From contig CAWEMM010000009.1 of assembly GCA_963810095.1 (NCBI GenBank), forward strand, positions 320,001-384,000: a stretch of 64,000 nt of DNA, in the 5' to 3' direction. Shown here piece by piece: positions 35,581 to 57,676 of the stretch. Position 1 is the stretch's first letter, and the number at the start of each line of letters is the position of its first letter. Position numbers and translations under genes: made by a program. The DNA comes from an uncultured Chloroflexia bacterium. Its GTDB lineage: Bacteria; Chloroflexota; Anaerolineae; CG2-30-64-16. The notes under the pieces are model-generated. The model was not told the origin of the DNA. It made no database searches and saw only the letters and a list, made by a program, of their open reading frames with translations.

Positions 35581-35584
35581 GATA

Positions 35585-37115: not shown

Positions 37116-37891
37116 GCCCCCTTCAAGACGGCGAGCGCTTCGCCGGCAGTCGCCCCGCCATGTACGATCGCCGCAATAGCAGCGGTCATACGCCGGGGGT
37201 CGTCCGCCTGGAACACGTTACGGCCGATGGCGACCCCGGCCGCGCCGGCCTGCCCCGCAGCCCGGATGCTCTCGAGCATCATTTCGGGCTGGTCCTGGCG
37301 CGCGCCGCCCAGGATCACCACGGGCACGTAACAGGTCTCGACCACCCGATCAAAGGGGGCCGCGTAGGGCACCTTAACCCAGTCTGCCCCTAACTCTGCG
37401 GCCACCCGGGCGCTCAGCGCGATATTCTCGACGGTGAAGAAGGCCGGTCCAGCGTCAAAACCGCCCGGCTGCATCTCTGCCAGTACGGGTAAGCCCCACG
37501 CGTGCGCCTCTGCGATGACGTGCGCCAGCGTCCGCAGTGTCTCGCGCTCCTGGGGCGTGCCGGGAAACGCCGAGACCACGACCGCGTCCGCGCCAATGCG
37601 CAGGGCATCCTCCACCGTGTAGAACTGGGCCCCCGGGCCCGATGCACCCAGCTTCGTCCCCCCGCCGTCTAGCCGCACGATCAAGCCGGCAGGGGCGAGT
37701 TCGTCGGCGAAGCGGGTGGCCACGCCGAAGCTCGTGAGAATGGCGTCCGCGCCGCCTGCAACAATTTGGCGTAGCGTGTCGCCCGGTCGTTCGATGCCAG
37801 GGATCGGCCCGTCGATCAATCCGTGATCGAATGCGACGATGACGGCTCGGCCGTCAGCGTTGAAAATGCGGCGTATGCGACGATTGAACAC
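37112..37891 (-). CDS. DhnA/LsrF-type class I aldolase
   Basis: [18 protein letters not shown] Schiff-base Lys, [16 protein letters not shown]. Confidence 0.9.
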
Positions 37892-37933
37892 GTTGCTCCT
37901 CAGGCTTCCTGTGTGAATGCCGGCGCGCGATGG

Positions 37934-38023
37934 TAACCACAAGGAACCAAAGACACGAAGGGACACAAAGCCCTGCCCGCCAACTTGGCGCATCTTTGGT
38001 TCTTCGTGTCTTTGTGTTCTGTT
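37934..38023. repeat. Palindromic repeat family B
   Basis: AACCACAAGGAACCAAAGACACGAAGGGACACAAAG...CTTTGGTTCTTCGTGTCTTTGTGTT. Confidence 0.8.
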
Positions 38024-38054
38024 AGCAGCCATCTTCTATAGGAGACCTCTCCGC

Positions 38055-38819
38055 CTACCGGGGGCCCGCTTCCAGCACCCGCAGGCCCGCGTCGACCGGC
38101 AGGAGGATGCCGGTGATGTAGCTCGCTGCAGGCGACGCGAGGAAGACGGCCGCGGCGGCCAGTTCCTCCGGCTCGCCGTAGCGCTTGAACGGAATGAACC
38201 GCTCGAGCTCGGCCGCGACGGCCTCGGGCATCTTGCCCAGAAGCATTTCGGTGCGGAAGAGGCCGGGCGCGATCGCGTTGACGCGGATGTGATAGGGCGC
38301 CAGGTCGAGGGCCATGGCCTTGGTCAGGCTTTCCAGGCCGCCCTTGCTCGCCGCGTACGCGGTGCGCCCCGGGATGGTCTGCTGGGCCAGGATCGAGGTG
38401 ATGTGGATGATCGCGCCCTGCTGCCTGGGCGCCATGCGCCGGGCGACGAGTTGGCTCAGGTAAAACACGCCGCGCAGGTTTGTGTTCAACACCTTGTCCA
38501 GGTCGTCGAGATTGACATCCAGGAAGCGGTTGTGATCGACCGCGCCCGCGTTGTTCACGAGCACGCCAATGGGGCCGATGGCTTCGGCCGCGGCGACCAT
38601 CCGCTCGCAGTCTCCTGTCTGGCTGACATCCGCCTGGCACGGAGTGGCCAGGCCGCCCGCGGCCGCGATTTCGGCAACCGTCTCGGCTGCGCCGGCTTCG
38701 TCTGCCCGGTAGTTCACGATCACGTGCGCGCCCCGTGCGGCGAACGCCTTGGCGACGGCTCGCCCGATTCCCCGGGAGGCGCCGGTGACCAGTGCGACGG
38801 CGCCCGTAAACTCAGCCAT
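38055..38819 (-). CDS. SDR oxidoreductase (FabG-like)
   Basis: TGASRGIG, NNAG, YAASK, RVNAIAPG. Confidence 0.9.
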   Translation of the reverse strand: MAEFTGAVALVTGASRGIGRAVAKAFAARGAHVIVNYRADEAGAAETVAEIAAAGGLATPCQADVSQTGDCERMVAAAEAIGPIGVLVNNAGAVDHNRFLDVNLDDLDKVLNTNLRGVFYLSQLVARRMAPRQQGAIIHITSILAQQTIPGRTAYAASKGGLESLTKAMALDLAPYHIRVNAIAPGLFRTEMLLGKMPEAVAAELERFIPFKRYGEPEELAAAAVFLASPAASYITGILLPVDAGLRVLEAGPR

Positions 38820-39792
38820 TCCCGTTGCCTCCGGCTTTGCCGCCGAAGAACGAGCGTTTCAGCACGGCCACGTCGACATGGCCGGCCGAAAAGGTGCGGC
38901 CGGTGGTCAGGTTCGTCATGTGGAGCACGGCAGGGCGTGTGCATGTCGGCAGGGATCGCGTGGAAGTCGTAGTTCGCTTCCTGGTAGAGCTGCGAGAACG
39001 ACTTGCCGCCGATGCGGGAGGCCGAGGTGACGATTGCAGGCACGACCTGGGCGAGCAGGTCGTCCGTCCGCCTCGACGTACAGGCTCACCTCGCCGCCAT
39101 AGATCAGCGCGTCGTTGATCCGCCCGAACGAAGTCAGCTCGTCATGGGTCAGGGGGGGGATGGGCGCGACGCAGGAGGCGAAGCGGATGCAGCGAAGGTC
39201 GAACTCGGCCAATGCCAGCCGGTGCATGGTGAGTTCCACCACCGCGGGCAGGCACCTGCACGGTCGAGATCAGGCACGCGTGCTTGGAAGCGAGGATGTA
39301 CAGGTTCTCTGGCTGCAAGCCGCACGCGTCGGCCATCTTCTGCGCCATTTCCTCGGTGACCGGGCGGGTCATCTGCACGGTCACGACGCCCTCGTGATAG
39401 CGGTCCCGGTAGCTGATGTAGTCGAAATAGTGGTCGGGCTCGTGGTTGAGCGCGCGGGCCGGGCCCGAGAGCACGGGCGCGTCCGGTTCCTTCGCAAGGA
39501 CCCAGCCCGCCACCTGGCACCCCATGCAGGCTTCGAGCGCTCGGTTGACCATGACGCGGACGCCGGGCACCCGGATGTCGCCGAGGGGGAAGCTCTCGTA
39601 GCTGACCTCGGCCAGGTTACCGAGAGTCACCCGCGTGAAATACTTGGCCGCTTCCCAGCTGCCCGGCGCCTTCTGCCCCATGTCGATGAGCGTCGCACCA
39701 TTGGGGAAGTGCGAGACCTCGACCCCCAGCGCCTCGGGCGCGGCGAGGATCTCCCGGATCAGTTTCATGGTTTCGGCGTTGACACTTAGCAT
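38812..39792 (-). CDS. mch: Methenyltetrahydromethanopterin cyclohydrolase homologue #1 (frameshifted)
   Basis: MLSVN..., GATLIDMG, CQVAGW, SGPARAL, VQVPARVVE, APIPP, GRINDALIYGG, ...KRSFFG. Confidence 0.85.
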
Positions 39793-39834
39793 GTGGTCAC
39801 CCCTTTAGTGGTTTCCATGACGAGAGTCAGACGG

Positions 39835-39904
39835 AACCACAAAGGTTCACAAAGGACGATTCCTTCAGCCTTGTGGACCTTCGTGGCTTGGTGTCTTTGT
39901 GGTT
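39835..39904. repeat. Palindromic repeat family B overlapping the E2-catalytic gene 3' end
   Basis: AACCACAAAGGTTCACAAAGG...CCTTCGTGGCTTGGTGTCTTTGTGGTT. Confidence 0.75.
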
Positions 39905-40605
39905 AGCTTCGCGGTGTCAAGGAGCGTTTCTTGAAGGTCGGCCAGAAACTGGGCCGCGGTGGCGCCGTCGATGAAACGATGGTCGTAGCTGAGGCTGAAC
40001 CACGCCGTTTCGCGTGCCGTAACCTGGCCTTCCCAGATGACCGGCCGCAGCTTCGCCGCGCCGACCAGCAGGACCGCGCTCTCGGGCGGCCGCGGGATCG
40101 GGACGCCCCCATCGACGCCGTACATACCCAGGTTGCTGACGGTGAACGTGCCGCCCTCGATATCGACCATCTTCAGCTTGCCGCTGCGCGCGCGCGCCGC
40201 CCGGTCCTTCGCCGCCTCGTCGATCTCGAAGACTGACAGGGCCTGGCGCGTTGGGGATGACGGCCACGATCAGCCCGTCGGGCACCGCCACTGCCATGCC
40301 GAGATTGACCGGCTCGTAGAGCAGCATCTCGTCTTCCAGCAGTTCGGCGTTCAGCAGCGGATGCTGCGGGAGGTACGCGGCGACCGCGCACAGGATCAGG
40401 CTGTTGAGCGAGACCGGCGTGCCCTCGGCGGCCTGAGTACCGGCGCACGTCCTGCGCCGCCTGCAAGTCCACCTCGCGGCTGATCTGGCTCAGAGCGGCG
40501 GTGGCGACCGCAGCTTTCATGCCGCGCGCCATGGCCTTGCGCACCACGCCGAGCTTACGGGTTTCCCGAACCGGCACCCCGCGGCGGCGAGACCGTCGTG
40601 CCCAC
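39865..40605 (-). CDS. Stand-alone E2 catalytic domain (2-oxoacid dehydrogenase acyltransferase; frameshifted)
   Basis: RKAMARGM, GMAVAVPDGL, GGTFTVSNLG, SYDHRFIDG; no lipoyl or PSBD domain. Confidence 0.82.
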
Positions 40606-40847
40606 TACGCCGCCTCTTCGATGATGCAGATGGGCGTCCCGACGGCTACTTCTTCCGTCCCCTCGGGCACGAGGATCTTGCTCAGCACGCCGCCGACGGG
40701 CGACTCGAGCTCGTTGGTGATCTTTTCGGTCGCAATTTCGACGAGAATCTCGCCTTGGGCCACCGAGTCGCCCTCGGCCTTGCGCCAGGCGCCAACGGTG
40801 CCCGAGTCCATGGTCAGGCCCCACTTGGGCATGATCACTTCAGTCAT
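40605..40847 (-). CDS. Stand-alone lipoyl-domain carrier protein
   Basis: MTEVIMPKWGLTM...EIATEKITNELESP...EEAA*. Confidence 0.85.
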   Translation of the reverse strand: MTEVIMPKWGLTMDSGTVGAWRKAEGDSVAQGEILVEIATEKITNELESPVGGVLSKILVPEGTEEVAVGTPICIIEEAA

Positions 40848-40910
40848 GACGGAATCCTTTCGCGTTTCTCCCTGCCAAGTGCCGCGCACCTTGGAAGATG
40901 CCCCGCACTT

Positions 40911-41888
40911 TCAGCCCGCCATCACTTTGCGGACCGCGGCCTTGATGTCTTCCTTGCCCGGCAGCACGATCTTTTCCAGCGGCACGGAGAAGGGAATGGG
41001 CGTGTCTAGCCCGCACACCCGGGCCACAGGCGCCTTCAGCGACCGGAATGCCTCTTCGGAGATGACCGCGCTGACGTCCGACGCCAGGCTGCCGATCTTG
41101 GGCGCTTCGTTCGCCACGACCGCACGGCCCGTCTTGGTCACCGACTCCAGCACCGTCTCCGTATCCCAGGGGCGCAGGGTTCGGAGGTCCACAACCTCCA
41201 CCGAGATACCTTCCGCCGCAAGCTCGTTGGCCGCGGCCAGCGCTTCCTGCGTCATGCGCAGGGAGCCGACGACGGTGACGTCGGCGCCTTCACGCGCCAC
41301 GTTCGCCTTGCGCAGCGGCACCGTGTACTTCTCGTCGGGCACCTCGCCTTTGATGCGGTAAAGCGCCTTGTGCTCGAGGAAGAGGACCGGGTTGTCGTCC
41401 TCGATGCTGGCGATCATGAGCCCCTTCGCGTCGTAGGGCGTGGCCGGCCCAACGACCACCAGGCCGGGCACGTTCATAAACCAGCCTTCGACCGACTGCG
41501 AATGGTGTGGGCCGCCGCCGAAGCCGCCGCCCGCCGCGGTGCGCACGACGATCGGCGACTTGAATTGGCCGTCGAACATGTAATGCATCTTGGCCGCGTT
41601 GTTGACAAGCTGATCGTAGCACGTCGTCAGGAAGTCGGCGAACATGATCTCGGCGACCGGGCGCATACCCACCATCGCCGCGCCGACCGCGCTGCCGACG
41701 ATGGCCGCCTCGGACAGCGGCGTGTCGCGCACCCGCTCGTCGCCGTACTTGGCCCACAGCCCCTTGGTCACGCCGAAGTCGCCGCCCATGCGGCCGATGT
41801 CTTCGCCGAGCAGGAATACCTTGTCGTTCTCGGCCATCATCAGGTCGAGCGCGTTGTTCAGTGCCTGGACGAGGGTCATGGTCTTCAT
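40911..41888 (-). CDS. TPP-dependent dehydrogenase E1 beta #2
   Basis: GEDIG, DTPLSEAAIVG, EIMFADF, HHSQS, FLEHK, DLRTLRP. Confidence 0.93.
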   Translation of the reverse strand: MKTMTLVQALNNALDLMMAENDKVFLLGEDIGRMGGDFGVTKGLWAKYGDERVRDTPLSEAAIVGSAVGAAMVGMRPVAEIMFADFLTTCYDQLVNNAAKMHYMFDGQFKSPIVVRTAAGGGFGGGPHHSQSVEGWFMNVPGLVVVGPATPYDAKGLMIASIEDDNPVLFLEHKALYRIKGEVPDEKYTVPLRKANVAREGADVTVVGSLRMTQEALAAANELAAEGISVEVVDLRTLRPWDTETVLESVTKTGRAVVANEAPKIGSLASDVSAVISEEAFRSLKAPVARVCGLDTPIPFSVPLEKIVLPGKEDIKAAVRKVMAG

Positions 41889-42860
41889 CGGGACGCAACC
41901 TCCCAGCCGACGTACACGTTGGCAGTCGCCTTGACCGGGTCGGGCTGCGGGCTCTGCATCGCGAAAGCGATCCAGCTCTCGACCAGCGCGTCGATCTCGG
42001 TCTTGATCTGGTTCAGCTCTTCCTCGGTGGCAATCGCCTGCGGCAGTCATGCGCTGCCGGGCCAGCATGATCGGGTCGTGCTCTTCGCGGAAGTAGCTTC
42101 ACCTCGTCCGCGGGGCGGAACTCGCCGCTGAACAGGCCCTGCCAGCGCCAGGTCTTGTATTCGACGAAGTACGGCCCCTTGCCGGCGCGGATGTGGGCCA
42201 CGGCCTCTTCGGTCGCCCGGTATGCGGCTGCGATGTCGTTGCCGTCGACCTGGACCGCAGGGATGCGGTACGCGGCGGCGAACTCGCACAGGTCACTCGT
42301 GGCGTGGCTGAACGCGACCGGGGTGGAGATGGCGTAGCCGTTGTTGACGCAGCAGTAGAGCACCGGCGCCTTCCACGTGCTCGCAAGGTTCATGCTTTCG
42401 TGCCACTCGCCGCGGCCCGAGGTCCCGTCGCCAACGATCACCGCCGCGACGCGGTCCGTCCCCTGCAGCTTCCAGCCCAGCGCCGCGCCCAGGGCCGTCA
42501 CCATCATCGACCCTTCGACGGCGTTGTTGCCGAAGTTGCCCACCGACGCGTCGGCGGAGTGCAGCGAGCCGCCTTTGCCGCTGCAAACGCCCGTCGCCGG
42601 CCGAACAGCTCGGCCATGATGCGCTCGCCGGGTGTGCCCGCGAGGATCAGCAGGCCGTGACAGCGGTGGTCGGGGAAGAAGCAGTCGGTGTGCTGCAGGT
42701 TCGCAGCGATGGCCGCCTGCGTCGCCTCCTGGCCCAGCCCGGTGTGGAGCATGCCGGGCACGTTGCCGCGTTTGAACTCGCGCTCCAGGCCGAGCTCAAA
42801 CGCCCGGACCCGGCACATGTCGCCATAGAGCTTGATTGCAAGTTCGGGATTCAAATCCAT
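41885..42860 (-). CDS. TPP-dependent dehydrogenase E1 alpha #2 (frameshifted)
   Basis: PGMLHTGLGQEA, DHRCHG, GGSLH, GDG...VNN, VDGND. Confidence 0.88.
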
Positions 42861-42874
42861 GGAGCCCCTCCTGT

Positions 42875-43937
42875 TTATGGTACTCCGAATGATGCAATGG
42901 CCTCGGCAATGATCGGGTAGCTGATCTGCCAGCGATCGAGTGGTACGTTCTCCGAGACCTGGATCTGCAGGCGGCCCGTGTGTCCGGCCGCAGCGAGGAT
43001 TTCGTCAGCCGCCGCCCGGATGACTTCGGGATCCGCAAGGTGTACGGAGCCGGGGAAGTTGACCCACAGCCGCTTTTCGGGCCACATAGCGGCCGCCTCG
43101 GCGACCGAGGTGTCGCAGTCGGGCAAAGGCGTGAAGGAGTCGAGCCCGCCGACCCCCGACGTGCCGATTTCCTTCCACAGCGGTTTCAGCATGCCGTCCA
43201 TGTGGACGTAAAGCGGCCTGCCGGTTTCGGCGAGCAGGTCGGCCAGCTCGTTGTAGAGCGAGGCGCAGTATTTCCGGAACCGGGCCGGTCCGATAGCTGG
43301 CGCAGTGATGTTGTCGGGGATGTCGATGTAAGGGGCCGGCGACAGGCGGGCGATCTCGAAGATCTGCCGCGCCCGGCGCACCAGCAGCTCAATCGTGTGC
43401 TCCACGTGGTCGGGCCAGTCGGCCAGGTGCCAGGACAGCGGCCCGAGGCCTACCCACTCAACCCAGAGCTGCTGCCAGGGCGTGCGCTCGCACTCGGCCT
43501 TCGGGAAACCGTCGTCGCCGAGCTCGGCACAATCCTCGAAAGTACTGCTCGTAGTTGTCGTGAACGGTCGAATCCTCCAGATAGCTCCAGAGGATTTCGT
43601 ATTCCTTGCGGGTTTCGATGAAGTGCTTCCGCGCGGTGGAACTGTCAAAGACGGGTTCGAATGCGCGTAACTCGACGAGGTCGCCCTTGGGCGTGTGCAG
43701 CGTGTTCCGCTGCCACTTGGCGCCTGCTTCGTGGAAGAACTCGCTTTCCCACGCACAGTTGGGGTGTTCGATGCGGTAGATGGGCCGATACCGGATGAGG
43801 CCGATGTTGCCGTGTCCGAGCAGGTCGAAGGCCTCCTGGGGCGGGAACATAATGTCGTACATCGCAAAGGGAACGCGGTCCATCTCGCGGCCCTGGACGA
43901 CCGCCAGCATGCGTTCGCGCATCGTCATCGTCTTCAT
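42875..43937 (-). CDS. Uroporphyrinogen decarboxylase/MtaA-CmuA superfamily protein (frameshift near 43535)
   Basis: MTMRERMLAVVQGREMDRVPF N-terminus, FRKYCASLYNEL, YVHMDG, ENVP C-terminus. Confidence 0.7.
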
Positions 43938-44037
43938 TTGCGCACCCCTGGGCTAGTAGCGGAGCGGCAGCGGGCTTCGCCTGCGGAAGTCCTGCCCAAC
44001 AGATGTAGGTCAGTGGTGGCCAGAATTATCACGCGCC

Positions 44038-44133
44038 ATGTTAGCACGGGCCCTGCCGCTTGTCAAGCGATGGTTTACGAGGGGCCAGTTTTTCCGGCTA
44101 CCAGTTGACAAGGCGCCTTAAGTCTGCTATTAT
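44038..44133. promoter_or_regulatory. Divergent promoters with palindrome variant TGTCAAGCGATGGTTTACG (44061-44079)
   Basis: - strand TTGACA-17-TAACAT; + strand TTGACA(44105)-17-TATTAT. Confidence 0.72.
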
Positions 44134-44326
44134 CCCCCCGGTGACGCCTAAGGAACCTCCAGCCACTCCCGGCGGCGTCGCGACTTGGCCAGTCCACCAC
44201 CAGTCGGTCACCGTTTCGCAAAAGATCGGAGGACGCCCTACACGATTTCGCCTTCTTCGGCCCTAAGTTCGGACGAACCCGCACTGTCGACAAACAAACC
44301 TACATCTGTGAGTCACAGGAGGAAAG

Positions 44327-45385
44327 ATGGCATCTCGTCGCTTTTCGATCACGTTGCTTCTTGTCGTAGTTGCATCGCTCGTGCTGTCTGCGTGCGCCCC
44401 CGCAGCCGCACCCGCCCCCGCTGCGGCCCCCACTACGGCCCCGGCTGCCGCGGCTAAGCCCTTCAAGATCGGCCTGGTGCATCCCAGCCCGATCACCGAC
44501 TCCTGGAGCGGCCTGGCGTGGGCCGGCCTGAAAAGGCCAAGAACGACCTGGGCGCCGAGATCGCCAACGTCCAGGTGGGCGAGCCGGCCGGCTTCGAGAA
44601 AGCCTTTAGCGACTTCGGCGCTCAGGGCTACGACGTCGTCGTGGGCCACGGTTTCCAGTACAACGACGCGGCCGCCAAGGTCGCCCCGCAGTTCCCCAAG
44701 ACCTACTACGTCATCATGAACGGCAGCAGCACAGGCCCCAACCTGACCGGCATCAACACGATCCCGGGCTACGTCCAGATGATGTACGTGGCCGGCATGG
44801 CCGCAGGCAAGATCTCCAAGACCCACCAGTGCGCAGCGTTCACGCTCGAAATGCCGGCGACCAAGCTCCCCATGCAGGGCTTCGTGCAGGGCTTTGAGAG
44901 CGTCGCCGGCAACAAGTGCAGCCTCGTTACCCTGAACGACCAGAACGACGTAGGGGCGGCCAAGGAAGCGGCCTTGCAGGCCATGAACGACGGCGCGGAC
45001 ATCATCACCGCGAACGCCAACCTGGCCGGCTCGGGCGTGTGGCAGGCCGTGAAGGACAACGGCGCGGACAAGGTCTATGCGGTCGGCACGGTCGGCGACG
45101 TGAACGAACAGGCCCCGAAGAACATGCTGTTCAGCGCCACGCAGGACGTGCCCATGTCCATCTTCAACGCGGTCAAGGCGATCAAGGATGGCACGATCAA
45201 GCCCGGTTCGGGCATCGAGCTGCGCTTCGAGAACAAGGGCGACGAGGCCGCGTACCCCATCGCTGTGGAACTCCAACGTCTCCACCTCGGTCATGACGCC
45301 TGAGCTCAAGGCTGAGATCGAGGCCAACCTGAAGAAGATCCAGACCGGCGAGTTGAAGGTTCCCGAAATCTGGAAGCAGCAGTAA
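44327..45385 (+). CDS. BMP-family ABC transporter substrate-binding lipoprotein (frameshifted)
   Basis: LSAC lipobox plus Ala/Pro linker, PSPITDSWS, GYDVVVGHGFQY, YVAGMAAG, GADII; AGGAGG RBS. Confidence 0.88.
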
Positions 45386-45408
45386 CTTCCAGGCGGACGA
45401 AGACTCTT

Positions 45409-45497
45409 CACCACAAAGGCACGAGGACACTAAAGGTTCACGAAGCGTTTGGTGCATTGGCTGTGTGAACCTTTGAGCCTTGGTGCCTTAGTGGTGA
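45409..45497. repeat. Palindromic repeat family B
   Basis: CACCACAAAGGCACGAGGACACTAAAGG...CCTTGGTGCCTTAGTGGTG. Confidence 0.78.
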
Positions 45498-45545
45498 AGA
45501 GCCGACACGAGTTGAGATCCATCCGGGGAATATGAGCATGCCCAC

Positions 45546-46632
45546 ATGAGCGTCCCAGCGGTTAGCAGCGAGCCGTCCTCCGCCGCGGTGAGAAACCAGG
45601 AATTGCTGCTCGCACTTTGGCGGAACCTGGTGCTCCCGGTCCTCTCGATCCTCGCGGCCCTGGCCGTCGGTGCAGCTTGTGCTGGTGCTGGCCGGCTACA
45701 ACGTTGGCGCGGCCTACGGCGCGCTCTGGCAGGGCGTATTCGGCAACACCCGGAACATGGGCGAGGCCTTCCTGCGCGCCACGCCCCTGATCCTGGTCGG
45801 CGCAGGCATCGCCGTTGCCTTCCGCTGCGGGCATCTGGAACATCGGCGCCGAAGGCCAGTTCTACCTGGGCGCGATCGCAGGCACCTTCATCGGCCTGCA
45901 GGTCGGTGGCCTGACCCCGTTCATCGCCATTCCGCTCGGTCTTCTCGCCGGCTTCCTCGCGGGCGGCGCCTGGGCCGAGCATCGCCGGCTGGATGAAGGT
46001 GCGTCTCGGCCTGAACGAGGTCGTCACCACCATCATGCTCAACTACATCGCGCTTGGCGTCGTCAGCTTCATGGTCAACGGGCCGATGCAGGAGAAGATC
46101 CACGCCAACCCGCAAACGGACCAGATCGCCAAGAGCATGTTCCTGCCCCTCATCTGGCCGCCCACCCGCGTCCACCTCGGCTTTGTTTTTGCCGTGATCG
46201 TGGCGGCCGTGCTTGCCTTCATCCTCTTCCGCACCCGCTGGGGCTATGCCATCCGTGCGGTCGGCTTCAATCCCGAGGCCGCCCGGCACGCCGGCATTAA
46301 CGTCAGCCGCCAGTTCCTCCTCGCCATGCTGCTGAGCGGCGGCGCGGCCGGCATTGCCGGCGCGGTCGAGATCATGGGCGTCACCCAGCGGCTCTACCCC
46401 GATCTTTCGCCCGGCTACGGGTTCACGGGCATTGCGGTGTCGCTGCTGGCCAACAACCATCCCGCTGGGCACGATCCTGTCGGGCTGGCTGTTCGGCGCG
46501 CTGGGCTCGGGCTCGCAGATGATGCAGCTCACCGCCCGCATCCCTGACGTCATGATTTACATCATCCAGGGCCTGGTGATCCTGTTCCTGGTCTCGTTCC
46601 GCATTCTGGGCGCGCGGATCGGCCGGAAGTAG
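45546..46632 (+). CDS. Nucleoside/sugar ABC transporter permease 1 (frameshifted)
   Basis: ATPLIL, NIGAEGQ, NEVVTTIMLNYIA, AVGFNPEAA, GYGFTGIAV. Confidence 0.88.
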
Positions 46633-46645
46633 GAGGAGACGCCCC

Positions 46646-47575
46646 GTGGCATTGCTGCTGGTCCTGCAATCACTGCTGCAAGCCTCCCTGCGCATGGCGG
46701 CTCCGCTGATTTACACCTCCGTGGGCGAGACCTACAACGAGCGGGCGGGCGTCGTCAACATCGGGCTGGAAGGCATCATGCTCATCGGTGCCGTGCACGG
46801 CTTTCGGTGTCACGTATTATCTGAAGTCGATCGGCCTGGCCGTGCTCGCCGCCGCGCTGGTCGCCGGGTTCTTCGGCCTGATCTTTGCCTATGTGACCGT
46901 GACCCTCCAGGCCAACCAGATCGTCACCGGCACGGCCATGAACCTGATCGGCCTGGGCCTTTCCAGCTTCGTGTACCGCGTGGCGTTCCGTGACATGCCC
47001 GGCGCCCGCATCGAGCCGCTGGCCCGCGATCTCCATCCCCGTCCTGAGCAAGATTCCATTCATCGGCCCCATCCTGTTCGAGCAGAACGTGCTCGTCTAC
47101 GGCGCGCTGGTGCTGACGATGGTCGCGGCGCTGGTCATGAACAAGACCATGCTCGGCCTGTCCATCCGTGCGGTCGGCGAGCATCCGCGGGCCGTCTCCA
47201 CGGCCGGTCTGACCGTCTCGCGCCTGCGCTACGGCGCGGCGATCTTCGGTGCGATGATGGCGGGCATCGGCGGCGCGTACCTGCCGATCGCCTGGGCCAA
47301 CACATTTGTCGAGAACATGGTCGCCGGCCGCGGCTTCATCGCCCTCGCGATCGTCGTCTTTGGGCGCTGGACGCCCGTCGGCGCGTTCCTGGCCAGCATC
47401 CTCTTCGGCTTCACCTACGCGCTCCAGCTGCGCCTGCAGACGCAGAATCTGCGCGTCGCGTACCAGTTCCTGCAGGTGCTTGCCCTACATCGCCACGCTC
47501 GTGATCATGGTCATCCTGCGCGGCCGGTCGACACAGCCAAAAGCCATGGGCGTACCCTATTCGGAGCGAGCATGA
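46646..47575 (+). CDS. Nucleoside/sugar ABC transporter permease 2 (frameshifted)
   Basis: ERAGVVNIGLEG, ANQIVTG, RAVGEHP, AGRGFIALA, LPYIAT. Confidence 0.88.
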
Positions 47576-49158
47576 CAGCCACCGACACTCCGGCCCACAG
47601 CACCGTCGGCCGCACTCCCGTGCCCCGCCTGCGGGTGCGCGATGTCTGCAAGAGCTTTGGCACGCTCAGGGCCAACGATCACATCTCGCTCGACGTGATG
47701 CCTGGCGAGGTGATGTGCCTGCTGGGCGAGAACGGCGCGGGCAAGTCGACGCTGATGAACATCGTCTATGGCCTGTACCGTGCGGACCAGGGGCGGATCG
47801 AGATCGACGGCCGCCCGGTGACCATCCGCTCGCCCCACGAGGCCATCGACCACGGCATCGGCATGGTGCACCAGCACTTCATGCTCGTTCCGCCGCTCAC
47901 GGTGACCGACAACATCATCCTCGGGCACCCGGCCCTTGGTCGGTCGCGGTTCGGTCCTCAACGATACGGCGGCGGTCGAGCAGCGCGTCAGCGAGGTGGG
48001 CAAGCGATATGGCCTCAAGATCAAGCCGGACGCCCGCGTTTCAGAACTCAGCGTGGGCGAGCAGCAGCGCGTGGAGATCGTCAAGGCGCTTTACCGCGGG
48101 GTCAGCCTGCTGATCCTCGACGAGCCGACGGCCGTCCTGACGCCGCAGGAGACGACCGATCTTTTCCACACGCTGCGCAGCCTGACCGCGGACGGGCTGG
48201 CCGTCATCTTCATCACCCACAAGCTCAACGAAGTCATGGCCGTCAGCGACCGGGTGACGGTGCTGCGCGACGGGAAGGTCGTCGGCCAGCGCCTGACCAG
48301 CGAGACTTCGATCCACGACCTCGCGGAGCTGATGGTGGGCCGCGAAGTGCAGATGACCATCGACAAGCCCGCCGTGGACTGCGGCGACGAACTGCTGCGT
48401 CATCGAGAACCTGACGGTCGAGGGCGAGCACGGGCGGAAGGCGCTGGACCGCCTCTCGCTGCTGCGTCCACTGCGGCGAGATCGTCGGCGTCGCCGGGGT
48501 GGACGGCAACGGGCAGCGCGAGCTCGCCTTGGCGATCGCGGGCTTGCTGAAGCCCGCGTCCGGGTCGATCCGCCTGGGCACGGCCGACATCGCCGGCAAG
48601 TCGCCGTATGAGATCATCCATGCCGGCTTGCGCCACATCCCGGAAGACCGCCACGCGGCCGGGCCTCGTGCTCGATTTCTCGGTCGCCGATAACCTGATC
48701 CTGAAGCGCTCGGACCAGCCGCCGTTTTCGCGGCGAGGCGTGCTGCAGCCGCGGGCCATCCTCGACTATGCCGCAGCGCACCGTCAAGAAGTTCGACGTG
48801 CGCACGCGCTCGGTCAATACCGAGACCAAGAACCTATCGGGCGGCAACCAGCAGAAGGTCGTGCTGGGCCGCGAGATCGACCAGGACCCCCGGTTGCTCA
48901 TCGCCGCGCAGCCGACCCGCGGCCTGGATGTCGGCGCGACCGAGTACATCCACCAATGCCCTGCTGGCGCAGCGGGCGCGGGGCGTCGCAATCCTGCTGA
49001 TCTCGACCGAACTGGAAGAGATCCTTGCCCTGAGCGACCGCATCGCCGTGATCTACGAGGGCCGCATTATCGGCGAAGTGCCGGGCGACCGGGCAAACAC
49101 GCAGAAGATCGGCCTGATGATGGCCGGCGTCGCGGGGCGAAGATGCTCGCCGCACTAA
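47572..49158 (+). CDS. ABC transporter ATP-binding protein, tandem domains (frameshifted)
   Basis: GENGAGKST, MVHQHFML, LSVGEQQRVEI, ILDEPT, LSGGNQQK, QPTRGLD. Confidence 0.92.
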
Positions 49159-49184
49159 GGCCGACCGATGAAGGAAATGACCAC

Positions 49185-50551
49185 ATGGCAAACATACTGA
49201 TTGAAAACGGCGTCGTCCTGTCGCTCAACCCGCAGCGCGACCTGTTTGCGCCGGGCTACGTCCTGATCGAAGGCGACAAGATTGCCGCGGTTGGGGCCGG
49301 ACGAGTGCGCCGCCCGAAATCGCCGCGCGGGCCGAACGTGTCCTGGACGCGTCGCGCAAGGTCGTCATGCCGGGCATGATTAACATCGCACGAGCACCTC
49401 TTCCAGACCTTCGTGCGCGGCCTTTCCGATAACCGGCCGCTGATGGACTGGCTGCGGGATATCGTGTGGCCGATCAGCGCGGCCATGACCGCGGACGACA
49501 TGTACCTGGCCGCAATGGTGGGCCTGGTCGAAAACCTCCACGGCGGCGCCACTGCGGTGATCGACCACCAGTATCTGCACACGGACCCGGGCAACGACGA
49601 TGCAGCGTGCCGGGCCGCCGCAGAGTTCGGCATGCGCTACCGGCTGGCGCGTGGCTGGACGGACTGAACGCGCCCGCTTCCCTGCTCGACTCGAGCGATC
49701 ACATCGTGGCGGAGACGGGCGCATCCATGACGCCTGGCACGGCAAGGCCAACGGCCGCATTATGGTCGAGTTCGCACCGGGCGTGCCGTGGGGGTGCAGC
49801 GAGGCGACGATGCGCCGGCGCCTACGAGGTTGCGCAAGGAGTGGGACGGCGGCATGCACATCCATGTTGCCGAGACGCGCGTCGAGATCGAGATGGACCG
49901 CGAGACGAAGGGTATGGGCCACATCGAGTGGCTCGATTCGCTCGGCCAGTTGGCCCCGGGCACCCAACTCGTGCACAGCGTCTGGCTCTCTGACCGCGAG
50001 ATCGATCTGATCGAGGGGTCGCGGGTCGGTGGTCGTCCATTGCCCGGCCAGCAACATGTACCTGGGCTCGGGAATTTGCCAGGTGAAGCGGCTGCACGAG
50101 CGCGGCATTCCGGTGGCGCTGGGGCTCGACGGCGCGTGCAACAACGGCTTGGGGATGATCGACCTGCTGAAATGGGCCGCCAATCTGCAGCAGGTGGCGC
50201 ACTTGACGCGCCCGCCCTCAAGCGCGATGGACGTGCTCGATATGGCTTGCCTGGGCGGCGCGGCCGCGATCGGCCAGACCGCGGTCCTCGGCAGCCTCGA
50301 ACCCGGCAAGAAGGCCGACGTCGTCCTGGTCGATCGCGATTCCACCCGGCTTGGCCCTCGCCACGCCGCAGAGCCTGCCCGTTGCTTTGGTCTATACGGC
50401 CAGCAGCGCGGACGTCGACACGGTGATCGTCGACGGCGAAATCCTGCTGCAGGACGGCAAGGTGTGCGGGATCGACGAAGCCGCATTGGTGGCTGAGGCC
50501 CGGTCGGCCTGGGAGGCCGTGCTGGCCCGTGCGGGCGTTTCAGCCGCATAG
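49185..50551 (+). CDS. Amidohydrolase, COG0402 family #4 (frameshifted)
   Basis: HEHLFQT, IDHQY, HIHVAET, HCPASNMYLGSG, GLDG; paralog of 22471. Confidence 0.85.
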
Positions 50552-50638
50552 AGTCTTATCATTGTCGTCCCCGTTCCCGGGTATCGCGATCAAGGATGAA
50601 GTGGCCGGGAGAGGACTCGGGGGAAGAGGTCAGGGAGA

Positions 50639-51788
50639 ATGAGCGTGCCCGGCAAGAGTTACGATGTCATCATCATTGGCGGCGGGTTCATCGGTGTCGC
50701 CACGGCTTACTATCTCGCCCGGCGCGGGACGAGCGTCCTCCTCATCGAGGGCAAGAGTCTCGGCAGCGGCTCCACGGGCGCCTGTGCTGGTCGCGCCCAG
50801 GTGTCCGAGTGCCATCCCGGCCTGCATCTCGACCTGGTCCAGCTCGGTCTGCAGCGCCTGGAACACTTGCAGGAAGAGCTGGGCTACGACTTCGAGTGGC
50901 GGCGCTTCGGCAACATCATGCTGGTCGACACCGAGCACGACTGGCAGGGGTGGGCCGCACAAAGCGCATTGCTGGCAGAGCGTGGCATCCCGGCCGCCAT
51001 GTGGGACGCGCAGACGCTCAAGGAAGCCGAGCCCGCGGTCCGCACCGACGACTTGATGGGCGCTGCGTGGTGCCTCGAAGGTCACGTCAACCCGCTCAAA
51101 TACTGTTGGGCCTACGCCCGCGCCGCCCGCCGTTTCGGCGCGGAGATCCATACGCAGGAACCGGTGATCTGCATCGAGCGCGACGGGGAGCGGATCACCG
51201 GCGTGCGGACGCAGCAGGGCTTCTACGGCGCGGGGCAGGTTCTCGTGGCCGCCGGCGCCTGGACCGCTAAGGTGCTCCGGACGGTGGATGTCGAGCTGCC
51301 CCTCAAGTCGACCAACGCGATGGCCATGATCAGCGAGAAGCTGCCACCCGTGCTCAACAACCACGTCGGGGTGGGCAACTTCTACGAGACCATCCACAAG
51401 AAAGCCAAGGCGGTTGCGCTCGGCGTGCTGCAGTTCCAGAACGGCTCGCTCTACATCGCGGAAGCGGTAGAGATGGGGACCATGGTTCGAATGGAGGCGA
51501 CGCCATGGGGACCGCCCGGCATGGCCCAGGTGCTGCTCGACCGTGTGCCCGCGTTCGCAGAGGGTCCACGTCGTCCGCTCGTGGGCCGCACCGAGCCCCT
51601 TCCTCGAGGACGAGCAGCCGGGGGTTGGCTACATCCCGGGCTTCGACAACCTCTTCCTGGCAACCTGCTTCCACCTGCACGTCACCACCGTGCCCGTGTT
51701 GTGCGACATTATCGCGAGCATGGCCCGCGACGAACCCACGGAGCTCGACGTCTCGGCATTCAGCCCCGCCCGGCTGTGGCCGTCGTAA
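50639..51788 (+). CDS. FAD-dependent oxidoreductase, DAO/sarcosine-oxidase-beta/HcnC family #2
   Basis: IIGGGFIG, GSGSTGACAG, VAAGAW, DVSAFSPAR; frameshift near 51560. Confidence 0.85.
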
Positions 51789-51796
51789 AAGAACGC

Positions 51797-51884
51797 GACG
51801 CTGATTGAACTGATTGAACTGATTCGCATGATCCCTTTTAGAGATCATGAAGATCAGTTCGATCGGTTCAATCAGCGTCCTATT
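51797..51884. repeat. Palindromic repeat family C
   Basis: GACGCTGATTGAACTGATTGAACTGATT...ATCAGTTCGATCGGTTCAATCAGCGTCCTATT. Confidence 0.82.
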
Positions 51885-51911
51885 TCCGATCAGTTTGAGG
51901 AGTGCGAACGC

Positions 51912-52893
51912 ATGCAACCGCTTTCGATGGAGAATTACAGCGTCAACAAAGCCGCCGTCGCGATGATCAAGGACTCCATCGCGCGCGCGGACGAGCTGCA
52001 GATCAAGGCCTGGCGCGCTGAGTGCGGCGCCATGCTGGTCGACATGGGCCTGAACTGTCCCGGCAGTTGGAAGGCGGGCCAGGTGTTTGTTGAGGCCGGC
52101 TACGGCGGGCTCGGCAAGGCAACGTATGGCGTCTTCGATCTGCCGCCGTTCCGCGTGCCTACGCATCGACGTCTGGGTGGACCACCCGGTGATCGCGGTC
52201 GTCGCATCGCAGGCCGGCTGCTGGGAGTTGGGCAAGGGTGAGTTCGCCCAGATCGGCTCGGGCCCTGCCCGGGCGGTCGCGCTCGCAGATCGCTGGTCGC
52301 ACAGCGGCTACGTTGATCATGCCGACGAAGTCGTCGTCCAGCTGCAGACGCGGCGCATCCCGTCCGACGACCTGTGCCTCCAGGTGGCTGACCTCTGCCA
52401 CGTCAAGCCCGAGAATGTGTATGTCGTCTTCGCGCCCACCGCGTGCCTGGTGGGTGCGGTGCAGGTGGCCTCGCGCACGGTCGAGCAAGTCATGGTCAAG
52501 CTCTTCCTGCACGGCTTCGACATTCATTCGGTGAGGCATGGCTGGGGGACCGCGCCGGTCGCGCCGCTGACGCCCGACGAGGGTGAGGCGATGGGGCGCG
52601 TCAACGACTGCCTCTTCTACGGGGCGACGACGGTGCTCTACTCCGACGCACCCGACGAGGAAATCGAGCCGGTGCTGAACCGGCTGTGCTTCGACGTCAA
52701 TGCGGGCGAGTACTGGGGCATGCCCTTCGCCCAGATCTTCGAGCGCTTCCACCACAACTGGTTCGAGGTGCCCGACCTGATCGACTCGCCCGCGCACGTG
52801 GTGATCAACAGCCTGCGCACCGGGCATACCTTCGCTGGCGGGCAGATCAATCGCGAGGTGCTCCAGCGGTCGTTCTTCGGCCGAGCGGCTTGA
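51912..52893 (+). CDS. mch: Methenyltetrahydromethanopterin cyclohydrolase homologue #2 (frameshift near 52160)
   Basis: SVN, GAMLVDMG, DHPVIA..SQAGCW, GSGPARA, APTACLVGAVQVASRTVE, APVAP, MGRVNDCLFYG, QRSFFG. Confidence 0.85.
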
Positions 52894-52911: not shown

Positions 52912-52938
52912 GTTGGGGCGGGCTGCGCTCGCCCCAAC
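52912..52938. repeat. REP-like hairpin
   Basis: GTTGGGGCGGGC-TGC-GCTCGCCCCAAC between two co-directional genes. Confidence 0.45.
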
Positions 52939-52972
52939 AGCGTTTTGTCCGCGTCTTTGGGCAGGGGTAGGA

Positions 52973-54133
52973 ATGGACCTCAGCGTTCGCATCGGCAGCC
53001 TCGAACTCGCCAACCCGGTCATCATTGCGTCGGGCCCGCCCGGCATCGACGGGGCCGCCATCAGGCGTATGGCGGCGGGCGCACCCGGTGCGATCGTCAC
53101 CAAGTCCATCGACCTGAAACCCTCGCCAGGCCAGCGCCTGAGCCTCTCCTACGCCGTCCCGGGCCGCAAGACGCTCGTGCTCACCGACCTCTGGTCCACC
53201 CACAGCCTCGAGGAGTGGTGCGAACGCGAGCTTCCCCTTGCCAAAGCAGGCGGCGTTCCGGTCATCGTCTCGCTGCAGGCGGTTAGCCTCACGCCAGCCG
53301 AGGACATCGCCCGGATGTCGCAGATGGCGGTGGCGGCCGGCGCGGACGCGATCGAGCTTTCGGCGTTCGGCATGTCGCCTAACGTGGTCGACGGCTCAGG
53401 CATCGGCGCGGTGCAGGACCCGGCGCGCACCTTCGACGTGATCCGGGCCGCCAAGCAGGCGGTGCGCGTGCCGGTCATCGCCAAGCTCCTGCCCGAGCCC
53501 TCCAACCTGATCGACCTGGTGCGGGCATGTGAGGCCGGCGGGGCCGATGCGATCGCCTCCCGCGACTCGGTATTCCCGGCCATCGCCTTTGACATACGCA
53601 CCCGCAAGCCTCGGGTGGCGCGCACCTTCGGCGGCTGGATGCCCGAGCTGTCGGGCCGCGCGATCAAGGAAATGGCGCTGGGTTATGTGGTGGAGATTGC
53701 CAGGCGGACGACCTTACCCGTTATCGGTGTGGGCGGCGTGATGACCTGGGAGGATGCGGTCGAGATGATGATCGCGGGCGCGTCTGCGGTCGGCATCTGC
53801 ACGGCGGCAATGGTCGAGGGGCCGAAGGTGAGCGGCAAGTTTCTGCGAGGCATTTCCGGCTACCTCGCGGAACAAGGGGTGACGCTGGAAGCGCTGCGCG
53901 GCAGTGGCCTGGAGGGGATGCGCCAGGTAAACGAGCTGGCCGAGCAGCCGCTGACCATGTGTGTGGACACCCAGGCGTGCAACCTGTGCGGGGTGTGCCT
54001 GCCGGTCTGCCCGGTGCAGGCGATTCACGAGGGCGACGGGCACATCTACATCGCGCCCGAAGAGTGCATTGCCTCCGCGTTCTGCGTCGAAAACTGTGCC
54101 CGGCATGCCATCAGTGTCGTAGCGCCGGCGTGA
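52973..54133 (+). CDS. DHOD/PreA-like FMN protein with C-terminal ferredoxin domain #2
   Basis: NPVIIASGP, IVTKS, VIAKLLP, LSGRAIK, IGVGGV, CNLCGVCLPVCP; catalytic loop reads ELSAFGMSPN. Confidence 0.85.
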   Translation: MDLSVRIGSLELANPVIIASGPPGIDGAAIRRMAAGAPGAIVTKSIDLKPSPGQRLSLSYAVPGRKTLVLTDLWSTHSLEEWCERELPLAKAGGVPVIVSLQAVSLTPAEDIARMSQMAVAAGADAIELSAFGMSPNVVDGSGIGAVQDPARTFDVIRAAKQAVRVPVIAKLLPEPSNLIDLVRACEAGGADAIASRDSVFPAIAFDIRTRKPRVARTFGGWMPELSGRAIKEMALGYVVEIARRTTLPVIGVGGVMTWEDAVEMMIAGASAVGICTAAMVEGPKVSGKFLRGISGYLAEQGVTLEALRGSGLEGMRQVNELAEQPLTMCVDTQACNLCGVCLPVCPVQAIHEGDGHIYIAPEECIASAFCVENCARHAISVVAPA

Positions 54134-54200: not shown

Positions 54201-54994
54201 CTATCCAAAGATCTGCTTGACCTTCTCCAGCGCCTCGGCCTCGGTGGTCGAGGGGTAGAATTCGAGCCCGATCAAGCCATCATACTTCAACTCGTGCAGC
54301 TTTTTGGCGATGTTCGGGAAATTGACCTCTCCCGTGCCCGGCTCCTGCCGGGTCGGGGCGTCGCCCACGTGCACGGCCTCGTAAAGCCCCGCATACTGCT
54401 CCAGCCCCCAGATCAGGTTCCCCCGTCGCGCTGCTGATGATAACAGTCAAAAGCCATGTGGAGCTTGGGATGGTCGAACCGGCGCACCCAGTCGGCCGCG
54501 AGATCGTGTTGGTGGACGAGGATGCCGCCCTTGATGTGAAACTCGTTCAGGGCCTCCACCCACACCTTCACCGGGGTCTGCTCGACGAGCTTGAGGATGC
54601 GCTCGGTCTGCTTCAGGCAGTTGGCGTACTGCTCGGCAGGGGTGAAGTTCGAGGACAGCCGCCGGGTGATCGTCCGGCCGTCGACAAAGTCGACCTGGTT
54701 CGAGAAGAGGAACAGGTACTGGACGCCGTACTGGCAGGCCATGTCCAGGCTTTCGGCCCACGTGCGATAGGTCAGCTCGTTGTCGCCGGGATCGGCGAAA
54801 GAGCCCATCTCGTCGTCGAAGGTCGAGTTGATGACGGCCCCCAGGCGGCGGCATTCGGACGCGATCTCGGCCATGGGCTGGCTGCGCCACGACCAGGCAT
54901 CCACCCGCTTGATCCCCAGCTTGCAGATCGGCTCCACCCGCTCGACCATCGGCCGGTCGGTGAACCAGAAATCCAGGTAACCCGTGAACTCCAT
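54201..54994 (-). CDS. Hyi-family TIM barrel #2 (frameshift near 54420)
   Basis: MEFTGYLDFWF... closely similar to 30721-31527; EPGTGEVNF, GLEFYP. Confidence 0.87.
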
Positions 54995-55021
54995 TGTCGT
55001 GCTCCTTCCGAGTGACGCCTT

Positions 55022-55096
55022 AACACAAAGGCACAAAGACACGAAGACAGTGAAACACGAACGAGCTGACGTACTTCCTTTGTGTCTTTGTGGTGA
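55022..55096. repeat. Palindromic repeat family B
   Basis: AACACAAAGGCACAAAGACACGAAG...CCTTTGTGTCTTTGTGGTGA. Confidence 0.78.
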
Positions 55097-55099
55097 TCT

Positions 55100-57659: not shown

Positions 57660-57676
57660 GTGTCCTCCAAAAACCC

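Follow-up and report, generated by a model that had tools for sequence, protein, structure and literature searches.

We analysed a 64,000-nucleotide stretch of DNA, referred to below as the window, from an uncultured Chloroflexia bacterium (assembly GCA_963810095.1, contig CAWEMM010000009.1, positions 320,001 to 384,000; G000:C9:320001-384000 in our own numbering), in which two genes of the methenyl-tetrahydromethanopterin (methenyl-H4MPT) cyclohydrolase family, here called Mch1 and Mch2, lie in two separate operons. The source genome comprises 6.13 Mb in 16 contigs and is 88.5% complete; the guanine-plus-cytosine content is about 0.65-0.67. The names carried by close homologues point to Chloroflexota, with the labels Anaerolineales or Caldilineales. 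A scan of the whole genome with the Pfam MCH profile (PF02289) returned five pieces, which assemble into two genes and no more, both inside the window, with E-values of 2e-72 and 9e-50. Mch1 matched profile positions 1-180, 181-239, 238-285 and 283-311, and Mch2 matched positions 1-69 and 57-311, so that each gene in sum covers positions 1-311; the pieces of Mch1 were also mapped by tblastn with intact orthologues. A first-pass annotation, made from the letters alone, had placed two such genes at the ends of the interval 38812-52893. Both are indeed there, the genome has no others of the family, and they are read in four and two pieces, respectively: 38812 and 52893 are the two stop codons, and four frameshifts had been read through.

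The two genes are embedded in different operons (Table 1). On the minus strand, the order is E1alpha, E1beta, lipoyl/E2, Mch1, short-chain dehydrogenase/reductase (SDR), DhnA/DeoC-type aldolase and FGGY kinase, and the start of the SDR gene overlaps the Mch1 stop by 8 nucleotides. On the plus strand, a Bmp-type ATP-binding cassette (ABC) importer is followed by a cog0402-type amidohydrolase, a DAO oxidase, Mch2 and a DHOD/PreA-like flavoenzyme. Open reading frames (ORFs), Pfam and NCBIfam matches and tblastn confirmed this division, which had been read from the sequence before as one set of genes with a thiamine pyrophosphate (TPP) enzyme complex, an aldolase and a kinase, and another with an ABC importer, a deaminase, a DAO and a DHOD-like enzyme. 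A genome of the same genus (G007) keeps the Mch2 operon syntenic at about 81-83% DNA identity, without the DHOD-like gene, and its Mch2 locus is also syntenic for the xylose-isomerase-like gene and the aldehyde dehydrogenase (blastn, tblastn). In a second relative (G011:C115), a DHOD-like gene and a Bmp gene follow directly after the Mch1 operon. Because of these arrangements in G007 and G011:C115, we regard the two Mch operons as one functional neighbourhood.

Table 1. Genes of the two Mch operons and of the adjoining region (window positions; G007, G011 and G021 are related genomes).
Feature	Position	Strand	Reading and basis
FGGY sugar kinase	35529-37115	-	NCBIfam XylB-like, 242 bits
DhnA/DeoC-type class I aldolase	37112-38032	-	NCBIfam ADH-synthase/LsrF-like subfamily, 229 bits
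SDR oxidoreductase	38055-38819	-	single ORF; 68% identical to G021 SDR
Mch1	38812-39792	-	E1/E2-linked subtype (CQVAGW); 4 frames, shifts near 39242, 39066 and 38934
E2 dihydrolipoyl acyltransferase, lipoyl and catalytic domains	39922-40847	-	3 frames; tblastn with G021 E2 and lipoyl ORFs; orthologues carry Pfam 2-oxoacid_dh and Biotin_lipoyl
E1beta, pyruvate/acetoin-dehydrogenase-like TPP enzyme	40911-42068	-	ORF; 80% identical to G021 E1beta, which scores 355 bits on NCBIfam PRK09212 (cut-off 321)
E1alpha	41894-42845	-	4 pieces; tblastn with G021 E1alpha; Pfam E1_dh on orthologue
Bmp/PnrA-family ABC importer: binding protein, two permeases, ATPase	~44456-49100	+	many frameshifts; tblastn with G007 and G011 orthologues; Pfam Bmp, BPD_transp_2, ABC_tran
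Amidohydrolase, TRZ/ATZ, guanine or 8-oxoguanine deaminase type (cog0402-like)	49185-50545	+	3 frames; tblastn; all NCBIfam matches under equivalog cut-offs; nearest PDB entries 4dyk, 4gbd, 4dzh and atrazine chlorohydrolase
DAO-family FAD oxidoreductase (ThiO/SoxB-like)	50636-51782	+	one frameshift; tblastn, Pfam DAO; NCBIfam matches far under cut-offs
Mch2	~51912-52893	+	SQAG[CDS]W subtype; 2 pieces, one frameshift at 52164; start 51912 or 51927
DHOD/PreA-like flavoenzyme, C-terminal 2x[4Fe-4S]	52913-54133	+	ORF; Pfam DHO_dh and Fer4 on G011 orthologue
Xylose-isomerase-like TIM barrel, D-2-hydroxyacid dehydrogenase, aldehyde dehydrogenase	54204-57668	-	Pfam, NCBIfam

The breaks are not confined to the Mch genes. 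About 20 frame changes were found in the ~16 kb examined by tblastn with intact orthologues of relatives as queries; they fall in the ABC transporter genes, the Bmp gene, the amidohydrolase, the DAO, E1alpha, E2 and xylose-isomerase-like genes and in both Mch genes, while the aldehyde dehydrogenase, E1beta, DHOD-like and SDR genes were unbroken in the same comparison. If the frameshifts were real, the Mch genes would be decaying pseudogenes of an island that is being lost in this lineage. Four frameshifts in two genes, and about 20 in ~16 kb, are denser than the single break in the 3.9 kb of rpoB; the breaks lie outside long homopolymers, which led us to reject homopolymer error as the cause of the four Mch frameshifts; and Mch genes were found in only one of seven other genomes of the genus. 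All three points speak for decay. However, essential genes are broken in the same assembly as well, with rpoB (G000:C14:146935-150808) split over two frames and folD (PF02882; G000:C6:936276-936778) over three. In addition, near-identical contigs from two public short-read runs of two other studies (X3 and X5, placed on the window at a likeness of at least 88%; their cover is patchy, with word shares of 0.06-0.12) do not contain the extra base at two of the three sites where Mch1 changes frame. One base fewer was seen at 38936 in one contig from X3 and three from X5, and at 39064 in two contigs from X3 and one from X5. Apart from the shifts, the frames show no further disruption and share 78-93% identity with intact orthologues. 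Complete homologues, about 320-330 amino acids long, are common, with identities of up to 93% for Mch2 and 92% for Mch1; the Mch2 orthologue in G007 is intact and 78-90% identical, and the database protein P0001 reaches 93%. Since rpoB and folD are split too, and since the short-read contigs lack the extra base, we read the breaks as assembly errors: Mch1 and Mch2 are most likely intact in the organism, and indel errors probably run through the whole assembly and lower its completeness estimate. That the two genes are pseudogenes is, in our judgement, very improbable.

The short-read contigs of X3 and X5 also join positions ~39871 and ~45430, with 23-40 other letters between them. This suggests another gene order in near relatives, comparable to that of G011:C115, where the DHOD-like and Bmp genes come after E1alpha.

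We then placed the two proteins within their family. The Mch2 orthologue aligned over its full length with the Methanopyrus kandleri enzyme (PDB 1QLM; 240 bits), its R222 and E225 falling on R183 and E186, and this similarity already fixes the predicted fold of the window proteins. A FastTree phylogeny was built from 200 rows, consisting of the window genes, 16 Mch sequences derived from related loci, and database matches filtered to 285-380 amino acids and thinned to every fifth of the near-identical P0001-P0072 and every third of P0114-P0153. It split the family into 74 and 126 rows with a support of 99, and a quick IQ-TREE run (LG+G4, 87 rows) gave a split of 43 versus 44 with an SH-aLRT of 100. 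One side holds all Mch from catabolic gene clusters, both window genes included. The opposite side holds all Ftr-linked Chloroflexota Mch together with the rows that carry an archaeal-looking QKA motif; for trees built without experimentally characterised Mch, it is this Ftr-linked context and the QKA motif that we call canonical. Both genes thus fall in a superclade apart from the Ftr-linked enzymes, and we consider them most likely to be members of a distinct Mch superclade that would act outside one-carbon (C1) metabolism. The catabolic superclade was found in Chloroflexota, Bacillota (including Clostridioides difficile), Spirochaetota and Fusobacteriota. Its genes almost always stand in one conserved operon, described below. 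It has at least five subtypes, which can be told by one segment: subtype A reads SQIAGW[QK]L, the Caldilineae/Mch1 type SQIAGWRL or CQVAGW, subtype B SQI[AG][GS]YP, subtype C SH[CV]A[IF]W and the Mch2 type SQAG[CDS]W.

The catalytic residues of the family are retained. Mch1 carries LSGPARA, VQVPARVVEL, FGRINDA and CQVAGW, and Mch2 carries GSGPARA, VQVASRTVEQ, MGRVNDC and SQAGCW, which agrees with the SGPARA, Arg/Glu, GRxND and CQVAGW/SQAGCW motifs noted earlier. The Arg183/Glu186 pair (M. kandleri numbering) lies in ARVVE in Mch1 and SRTVE in Mch2 and is at least 85% conserved in both superclades; across the catabolic superclade, the window genes included, the pair is conserved together with the GSGPAR loop and GRxND, and 21 columns besides the catalytic pair are conserved on both sides of the split. 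The first-pass annotation had also taken SQKAGW for the usual form of the variable segment, and loss of its Lys for a sign of changed function. Neither idea survived the alignment of 302 family members, where the Q-x-A triplet is QIA in 96, QYA in 58, QAG in 37, QFA in 20 and QKA in only nine; because Lys is rare at position 94 across the family, its loss carries no weight as an argument. Over residues 93-95, where M. kandleri has Q-K-A, both proteins retain Gln93; the next position is Val in Mch1, the triplet of Mch2 is Q-A-G, and canonical Ftr-linked Chloroflexota Mch have Tyr at position 94. A different column carries the signal. At the position of M. kandleri Glu140, the 302 rows have Gln 184 times, Glu 115 times, a gap twice and Arg once. 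Gln is found in 102 of 102 rows from the 79 related loci described below and in both window genes, and Glu in 10 of 10 Ftr-linked rows and in 92% of 39 canonical rows. In this alignment, the Glu140-to-Gln exchange separates the two superclades almost perfectly.

In order to see whether the window genes belong to a conventional H4MPT pathway, we searched for its other components. Neither the window nor the whole source genome, at 88.5% completeness, gave a match for FTR, Mpt_N (Mtd), Fae or RFAP synthase, Fhc not having been searched separately. The remark that ftr, mtd and fae are missing from the window was therefore borne out and now extends to the genome; the proposed check for H4MPT biosynthesis genes was likewise negative for the family looked for, RFAP synthase. 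The Mpt_N search gave no match in control genomes and was positive in three relatives (G011, G019 and G036). Two Mch carriers, G007 from the genus of the source genome (90% complete) and the 98%-complete G021, have window-type Mch only, and neither FTR nor Mpt_N was found in them; both families are present in G011, G019 and G036, that is, in three of the five Mch-carrying genomes compared. RFAP synthase was found in none of five carriers (G007, G021 and the genomes of loci L080, L077 and L073) and FTR in none of five (the genomes of L080, L077, L073, L098 and L060), with one C. difficile chromosome and one closed Chloroflexia chromosome among the latter. MCH itself is distributed patchily, in eight of 41 relatives with the source genome counted, six of 37 genomes of the family and three of 401 genomes in a phylum-wide sample.

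These data bear on the possibility that Mch1 and Mch2 carry out the usual methenyl-H4MPT cyclohydrolase step of formaldehyde or C1 oxidation and that the remaining pathway genes escaped detection. The incompleteness of the source genome would allow for it, orthologues of the window genes score above the TIGR03120 equivalog cut-off, and relatives of the same family and class do have full H4MPT/methanofuran-type clusters with two Mch genes: in G036, G019 and G011, these classic clusters combine Ftr, Fhc-like subunits, MtdA-like, DUF2193, ATP-grasp and CitG with the Mch pair. However, four marker families are without a match in the source genome, members of the clade occur without FTR in the 98%-complete G021 and on the closed Chloroflexia chromosome, the window genes and the Ftr-linked ones stand in different superclades, and the catabolic operons of the former are conserved in Clostridia and spirochaetes. 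We therefore hold an ordinary role in the H4MPT pathway to be the least probable of the explanations considered here, and extremely so.

The second Mch paralogue of the Chloroflexota H4MPT/Ftr clusters has a peculiarity of its own: Ala replaces Glu186 and A[LHR]AND replaces GRxND, with Glu140 kept. It was seen at loci L013, L014, L009, L015 and L032 (G036:C64, G019:C141, G011:C51 and C143, and G443:C507). Going by these replacements, this paralogue is probably not a cyclohydrolase.

To describe the genomic context of the catabolic superclade, one genome per species was searched with an alignment of 11 Mch sequences. The search matched 206 stretches, 104 of which encode relatives; 80 were kept and yielded 79 loci, 44 from Chloroflexota, 26 from Bacillota, five from Spirochaetota, one each from Fusobacteriota, Cloacimonadota and Acidobacteriota, and one unassigned. 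The ORFs of these loci were clustered and the cluster representatives annotated. The most constant partners are the SDR (55 of 79 loci), E1alpha (54), E1beta (51) and E2 (48), followed by Amidohydro_1 (46). An HTH-cupin regulator occurs in 29 loci, the large subunit of xanthine dehydrogenase (XDH) in 28, an ABC ATPase in 26, a RibD_C-like gene in 23, Bmp in 20, luciferase-like (Mer-family) and M20 genes in 19 each, DeoC in 17, FGGY in 16, and DAO, OTCase-like and E3 genes in 13 each. The commonest order is [GntR]-SDR-MchA-E1a-E1b-E2-MchB; as the usual order holds both MchA and MchB, clusters often contain two or three Mch paralogues. Three C. difficile loci (L078, L079 and L080) have a full operon of XDH, SDR, Mch, E1, E2, amidohydrolase, RibD_C-like and E3 genes. 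L080, the one annotated in full and the one where the NCS2 permease was noted, reads amidohydrolase, NCS2 xanthine-permease-like transporter, XDH small and large subunits, SDR, Mch, E1a, E1b, E2, TRZ/ATZ-type amidohydrolase, RibD_C-like and lipoamide dehydrogenase (E3).

Genes of the Mch2 type have a somewhat different company, made up of FGGY kinase, DeoC aldolase, xylose-isomerase-like, DAO, amidohydrolase, M20, OTCase-like and XDH genes, a context seen in Chloroflexota and in one metagenome-assembled genome (MAG) of Treponemataceae. The FGGY and DeoC families, which stand in the Mch1 operon of the window, thus recur beside Mch2-type genes in other genomes. Mch2-type genes usually lie within about 13-18 kb of an E1/E2-type Mch cluster on the same contig, the window included.

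We also came across a 564-amino-acid protein from an Anaerolineae MAG (P0154) with 2-oxoacid_dh, MCH and SDR domains in one chain. Whether this chain is a real fusion or arose as a frameshift artefact, it mirrors the E2-Mch-SDR gene order.

The strongest competitor is a role on folate. In this case, Mch1 and Mch2 would be methenyl-tetrahydrofolate (methenyl-THF) cyclohydrolases performing C1 chemistry on units delivered by the neighbouring oxidases and deaminases. There is a precedent in PMC8305020, which proposes such a role for HVO_2573, an Mch homologue of Haloferax volcanii, an organism without methanopterin. Much of the protein is conserved, the catalytic pair included, Mch2 stands directly after a SoxB/ThiO-like DAO gene, and a luciferase-like (Mer-family) gene is found in 19 of the 79 loci, all of which would fit a folate substrate. 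Against it, FolD (PF02882) is present in the source genome, and a folate cyclohydrolase is therefore not missing from it. Two or three Mch paralogues per cluster are more than one C1 step needs, the most constant partners are the SDR and E1/E2 and not folate enzymes, the window's SoxA-like gene showed no folate-binding domain of the GCV_T type, and the Glu140-to-Gln switch marks the whole clade. HVO_2573 resembles the window genes in being an Mch homologue in the absence of methanopterin for which a change of substrate has been proposed; however, that proposal keeps a C1 role and concerns a single gene, as opposed to two or three paralogues with FolD present and an SDR/E1/E2/deaminase/XDH context. 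On balance, we think a folate role improbable.

Alternatively, the Mch proteins could be non-catalytic or scaffolding subunits that assemble with E1/E2, perhaps as hetero-trimers of the paralogues, and leave the chemistry to the TPP/lipoyl enzyme. The tight and conserved gene order, in which Mch genes flank E1a-E1b-E2 and Mch1 overlaps the SDR start, would suit such a function, and a paralogue without the catalytic Glu does exist in the canonical clusters. However, with Arg183, Glu186, the GSGPAR loop and GRxND conserved throughout the catabolic superclade and in both window genes, we hold such a scaffolding role to be highly unlikely.

We favour, with moderate confidence, the interpretation that the Mch proteins of the window are ring-opening hydrolases of a cyclic amidine in the catabolism of an N-heterocycle rather than methenyl-H4MPT cyclohydrolases; for any particular substrate our confidence is far lower. 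The hydrolase reading comes from the retention of Arg183/Glu186 together with partners typical of nucleobase breakdown. From these we infer what kind of reaction is catalysed, in which order the steps run and to which class the substrate belongs, as follows. An N-heterocycle of purine- or pteridine-like structure would be taken up by a nucleobase-type importer of the Bmp or NCS2 type and deaminated by the cog0402-type amidohydrolase, and in many genomes an XDH-family enzyme and a RibD_C/DHFR-like reductase would hydroxylate or reduce the ring. On the deaminated or reduced intermediate, one to three Mch paralogues would then open the ring amidines, adding water across a ring C=N bond (amidine or iminium) to give an N-formyl or amino-carbonyl product. 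The SDR and the pyruvate/acetoin-dehydrogenase-like E1/E2(/E3) complex would convert the leftover carbon skeleton to an acyl-CoA. In the window, Mch1 is the paralogue embedded in the E1/E2/SDR operon, and Mch2 would be a Chloroflexota-type accessory paralogue, placed beside the importer, the deaminase and the DAO oxidase.

The idea that the two enzymes had been repurposed for catabolism, put forward from the sequence of the window alone, is thus strongly supported by comparative genomics as far as it places them outside C1/H4MPT metabolism, given the separate superclade, the cross-phylum operon and the lack of H4MPT matches in the searches above; the ring-opening or deformylation of pterin- or imidazoline-type intermediates that it added is conceivable. 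The more speculative suggestion of scavenging archaeal pterin cofactors found no support, and the carriers include gut Clostridia. The conserved TPP/lipoyl complex, deaminase, reductase and molybdenum hydroxylase suit nucleobase-like substrates.

Several observations weigh against our interpretation. Three tested members of the clade pass the TIGR03120 Mch equivalog cut-off of 228.8, namely the orthologues of the window genes (272 and 256 bits) and the C. difficile Mch of L080 (301 bits). Canonical Mch has the catalytic residues and further columns in common with these proteins, so that a reduced pterin or folate carrying a methenyl group could still be the substrate. The mechanistic roles drawn upon come from work on the Archaeoglobus fulgidus enzyme, in which Arg183 and Glu186 are said to activate water for attack on the cyclic amidinium carbon and segment 93-95 is reportedly an active-site segment. 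No XDH-family or RibD_C-like gene lies near the Mch genes in the window, and for this reason the version of the pathway in the source organism would differ from the common one. What we assign to the E1/E2 complex is conjecture. The neighbour counts derive from the loci of one alignment, many of which end at contig ends, and kin among them are not independent. Finally, no short-read contig was seen at 39242 or 52164, which limits the short-read support for assembly errors to two of the four sites.

A bolder version of this scheme would be a new bacterial purine or pteridine route, in which, after deamination and reduction, the Mch paralogues hydrolyse each ring amidine carbon, and this carbon leaves as formyl, whereas the 2,8-dioxopurine pathway oxidises it to a ureido carbon. 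The SDR and a PDH (pyruvate dehydrogenase)-like E1/E2/E3 complex would then turn the remaining C3 skeleton into acyl-CoA, and the Glu140-to-Gln exchange would retune the pocket, shifting it from a 2-amino-pterin edge to a deaminated 2-oxo edge. We consider this route a doubtful proposition as a whole; if true, it would span organisms from soil and sludge Chloroflexota to gut Clostridia.

Comparison with known systems did not identify the operon with any of them. Canonical Mch (EC 3.5.4.27; PDB 1QLM from M. kandleri, 4GVQ/4GVR/4GVS from A. fulgidus, and 4FIO) belongs to the same Pfam family over its full length and shares Arg183/Glu186, the GSGPAR loop and GRxND with the window genes. The window genes differ from it in their superclade, in Gln for Glu140, in position 94 (Val in Mch1, or the segment AGC in Mch2, versus Lys or Tyr), and in their catabolic operons in a genome that gave no matches for H4MPT partner or biosynthesis genes. 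The partner genes, for their part, resemble acetoin/PDH complexes (AcoABC(L); PDH E1alpha-beta/E2/E3) in that they score as PDH-type E1alpha, E1beta, E2 and E3, with E1beta above its subfamily cut-off and E3 at 546 bits as lipoamide dehydrogenase; they differ in that E1alpha and E2 stay under the equivalog cut-offs. The complex described here is always flanked by Mch paralogues and an SDR, an arrangement that is not known from the established acetoin/PDH complexes.

Among catabolic gene sets, the reductive uric acid or 2,8-dioxopurine cluster (XdhD, YgfK, SsnA, HyuA, YgeW, YgeY and YgeX; PMC12507026, bioRxiv 10.1101/2025.04.24.650524) shares the general logic of a molybdenum hydroxylase, a reductase, ring cleavage by an amidohydrolase and entry of the product into central metabolism. 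SsnA-like, M20, OTCase-like and XDH genes occur in only part of the 79 loci, and the YgfK and YgeX families are not among the annotated conserved neighbours. In term searches of the two papers, Mch, a lipoyl/E1/E2 complex and SDR did not appear, and cyclohydrolase came up in a single mention, a reference to a UTP cyclohydrolase; we rejected identity with this cluster on the grounds that Mch, lipoyl and SDR are not among its terms there. The pterin/lumazine cluster of Cupriavidus sp. LA-1 (PMC12391406, as outlined in its abstract) has an amidohydrolase-type pterin deaminase, a molybdenum dehydrogenase and a UbiD-type decarboxylase; an amidase-signature isomerase and the UbiD enzyme beside the dehydrogenase are its marks. 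The window also contains a UbiD gene, and an amidase-signature gene lies near the cluster in G021; Mch and E1/E2 are not part of that published outline, and the cluster was rejected with homologues of the window UbiD and the G021 amidase-signature gene in none of the 79 loci. The riboflavin/lumichrome pathway (PMC12746152) includes a TPP-dependent heterocycle decarboxylase, but no Mch is described in the part of the text that we could consult, and it was rejected as well.

The window as a whole is one large catabolic island, with further genes at 7480-33346 and 58897-61363. These comprise a second SDR and E1alpha/E1beta/E2 set, an aldehyde:ferredoxin oxidoreductase (AFOR), four amidohydrolase pieces with an M20 peptidase, and one more gene each of the DHOD-like/Fer4 and xylose-isomerase-like kinds. 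SoxA-like, Fer2_4 and saccharopine-dehydrogenase-like genes and an HTH-cupin regulator are found there as well, and the UbiD decarboxylase also lies in the rest of the window. The DHOD-like, UbiD, URO-D-like, AFOR and aldehyde dehydrogenase genes were rejected as conserved partners, as they occur in zero to two of the 79 related loci (the DHOD-like gene in one), and are treated as local additions. The spacer 5' of Mch2 (51797-51900) is richer in AT than its surroundings and contains three tandem CTGATTGAA units, an inverted TTCAATCAG and repeated GATCAG words; it may be an operator.

In summary, our results point to a known fold with its catalytic device at work in another, as yet undefined pathway, and this is how we rate the finding. 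No description of these Mch homologues or of the operon was found in the literature covered, which lay outside subscription journals and supplementary files. As the NCBI equivalog scores exceed the cut-off, members of the clade are labelled as methenyl-H4MPT cyclohydrolases in Clostridia, spirochaetes and Chloroflexota; the annotation of the C. difficile Mch is likely a systematic misannotation, and metagenome surveys may count genes of this clade as markers of methanogenesis or methylotrophy. The cross-phylum operon, carried by gut-associated Bacillota as well as by environmental bacteria, is likely a sign of an uncharacterised route for the breakdown of a nucleobase-like compound, and the Glu/Gln column 140 offers a simple hypothesis for how specificity may have changed in a family thought to be tied to one cofactor.

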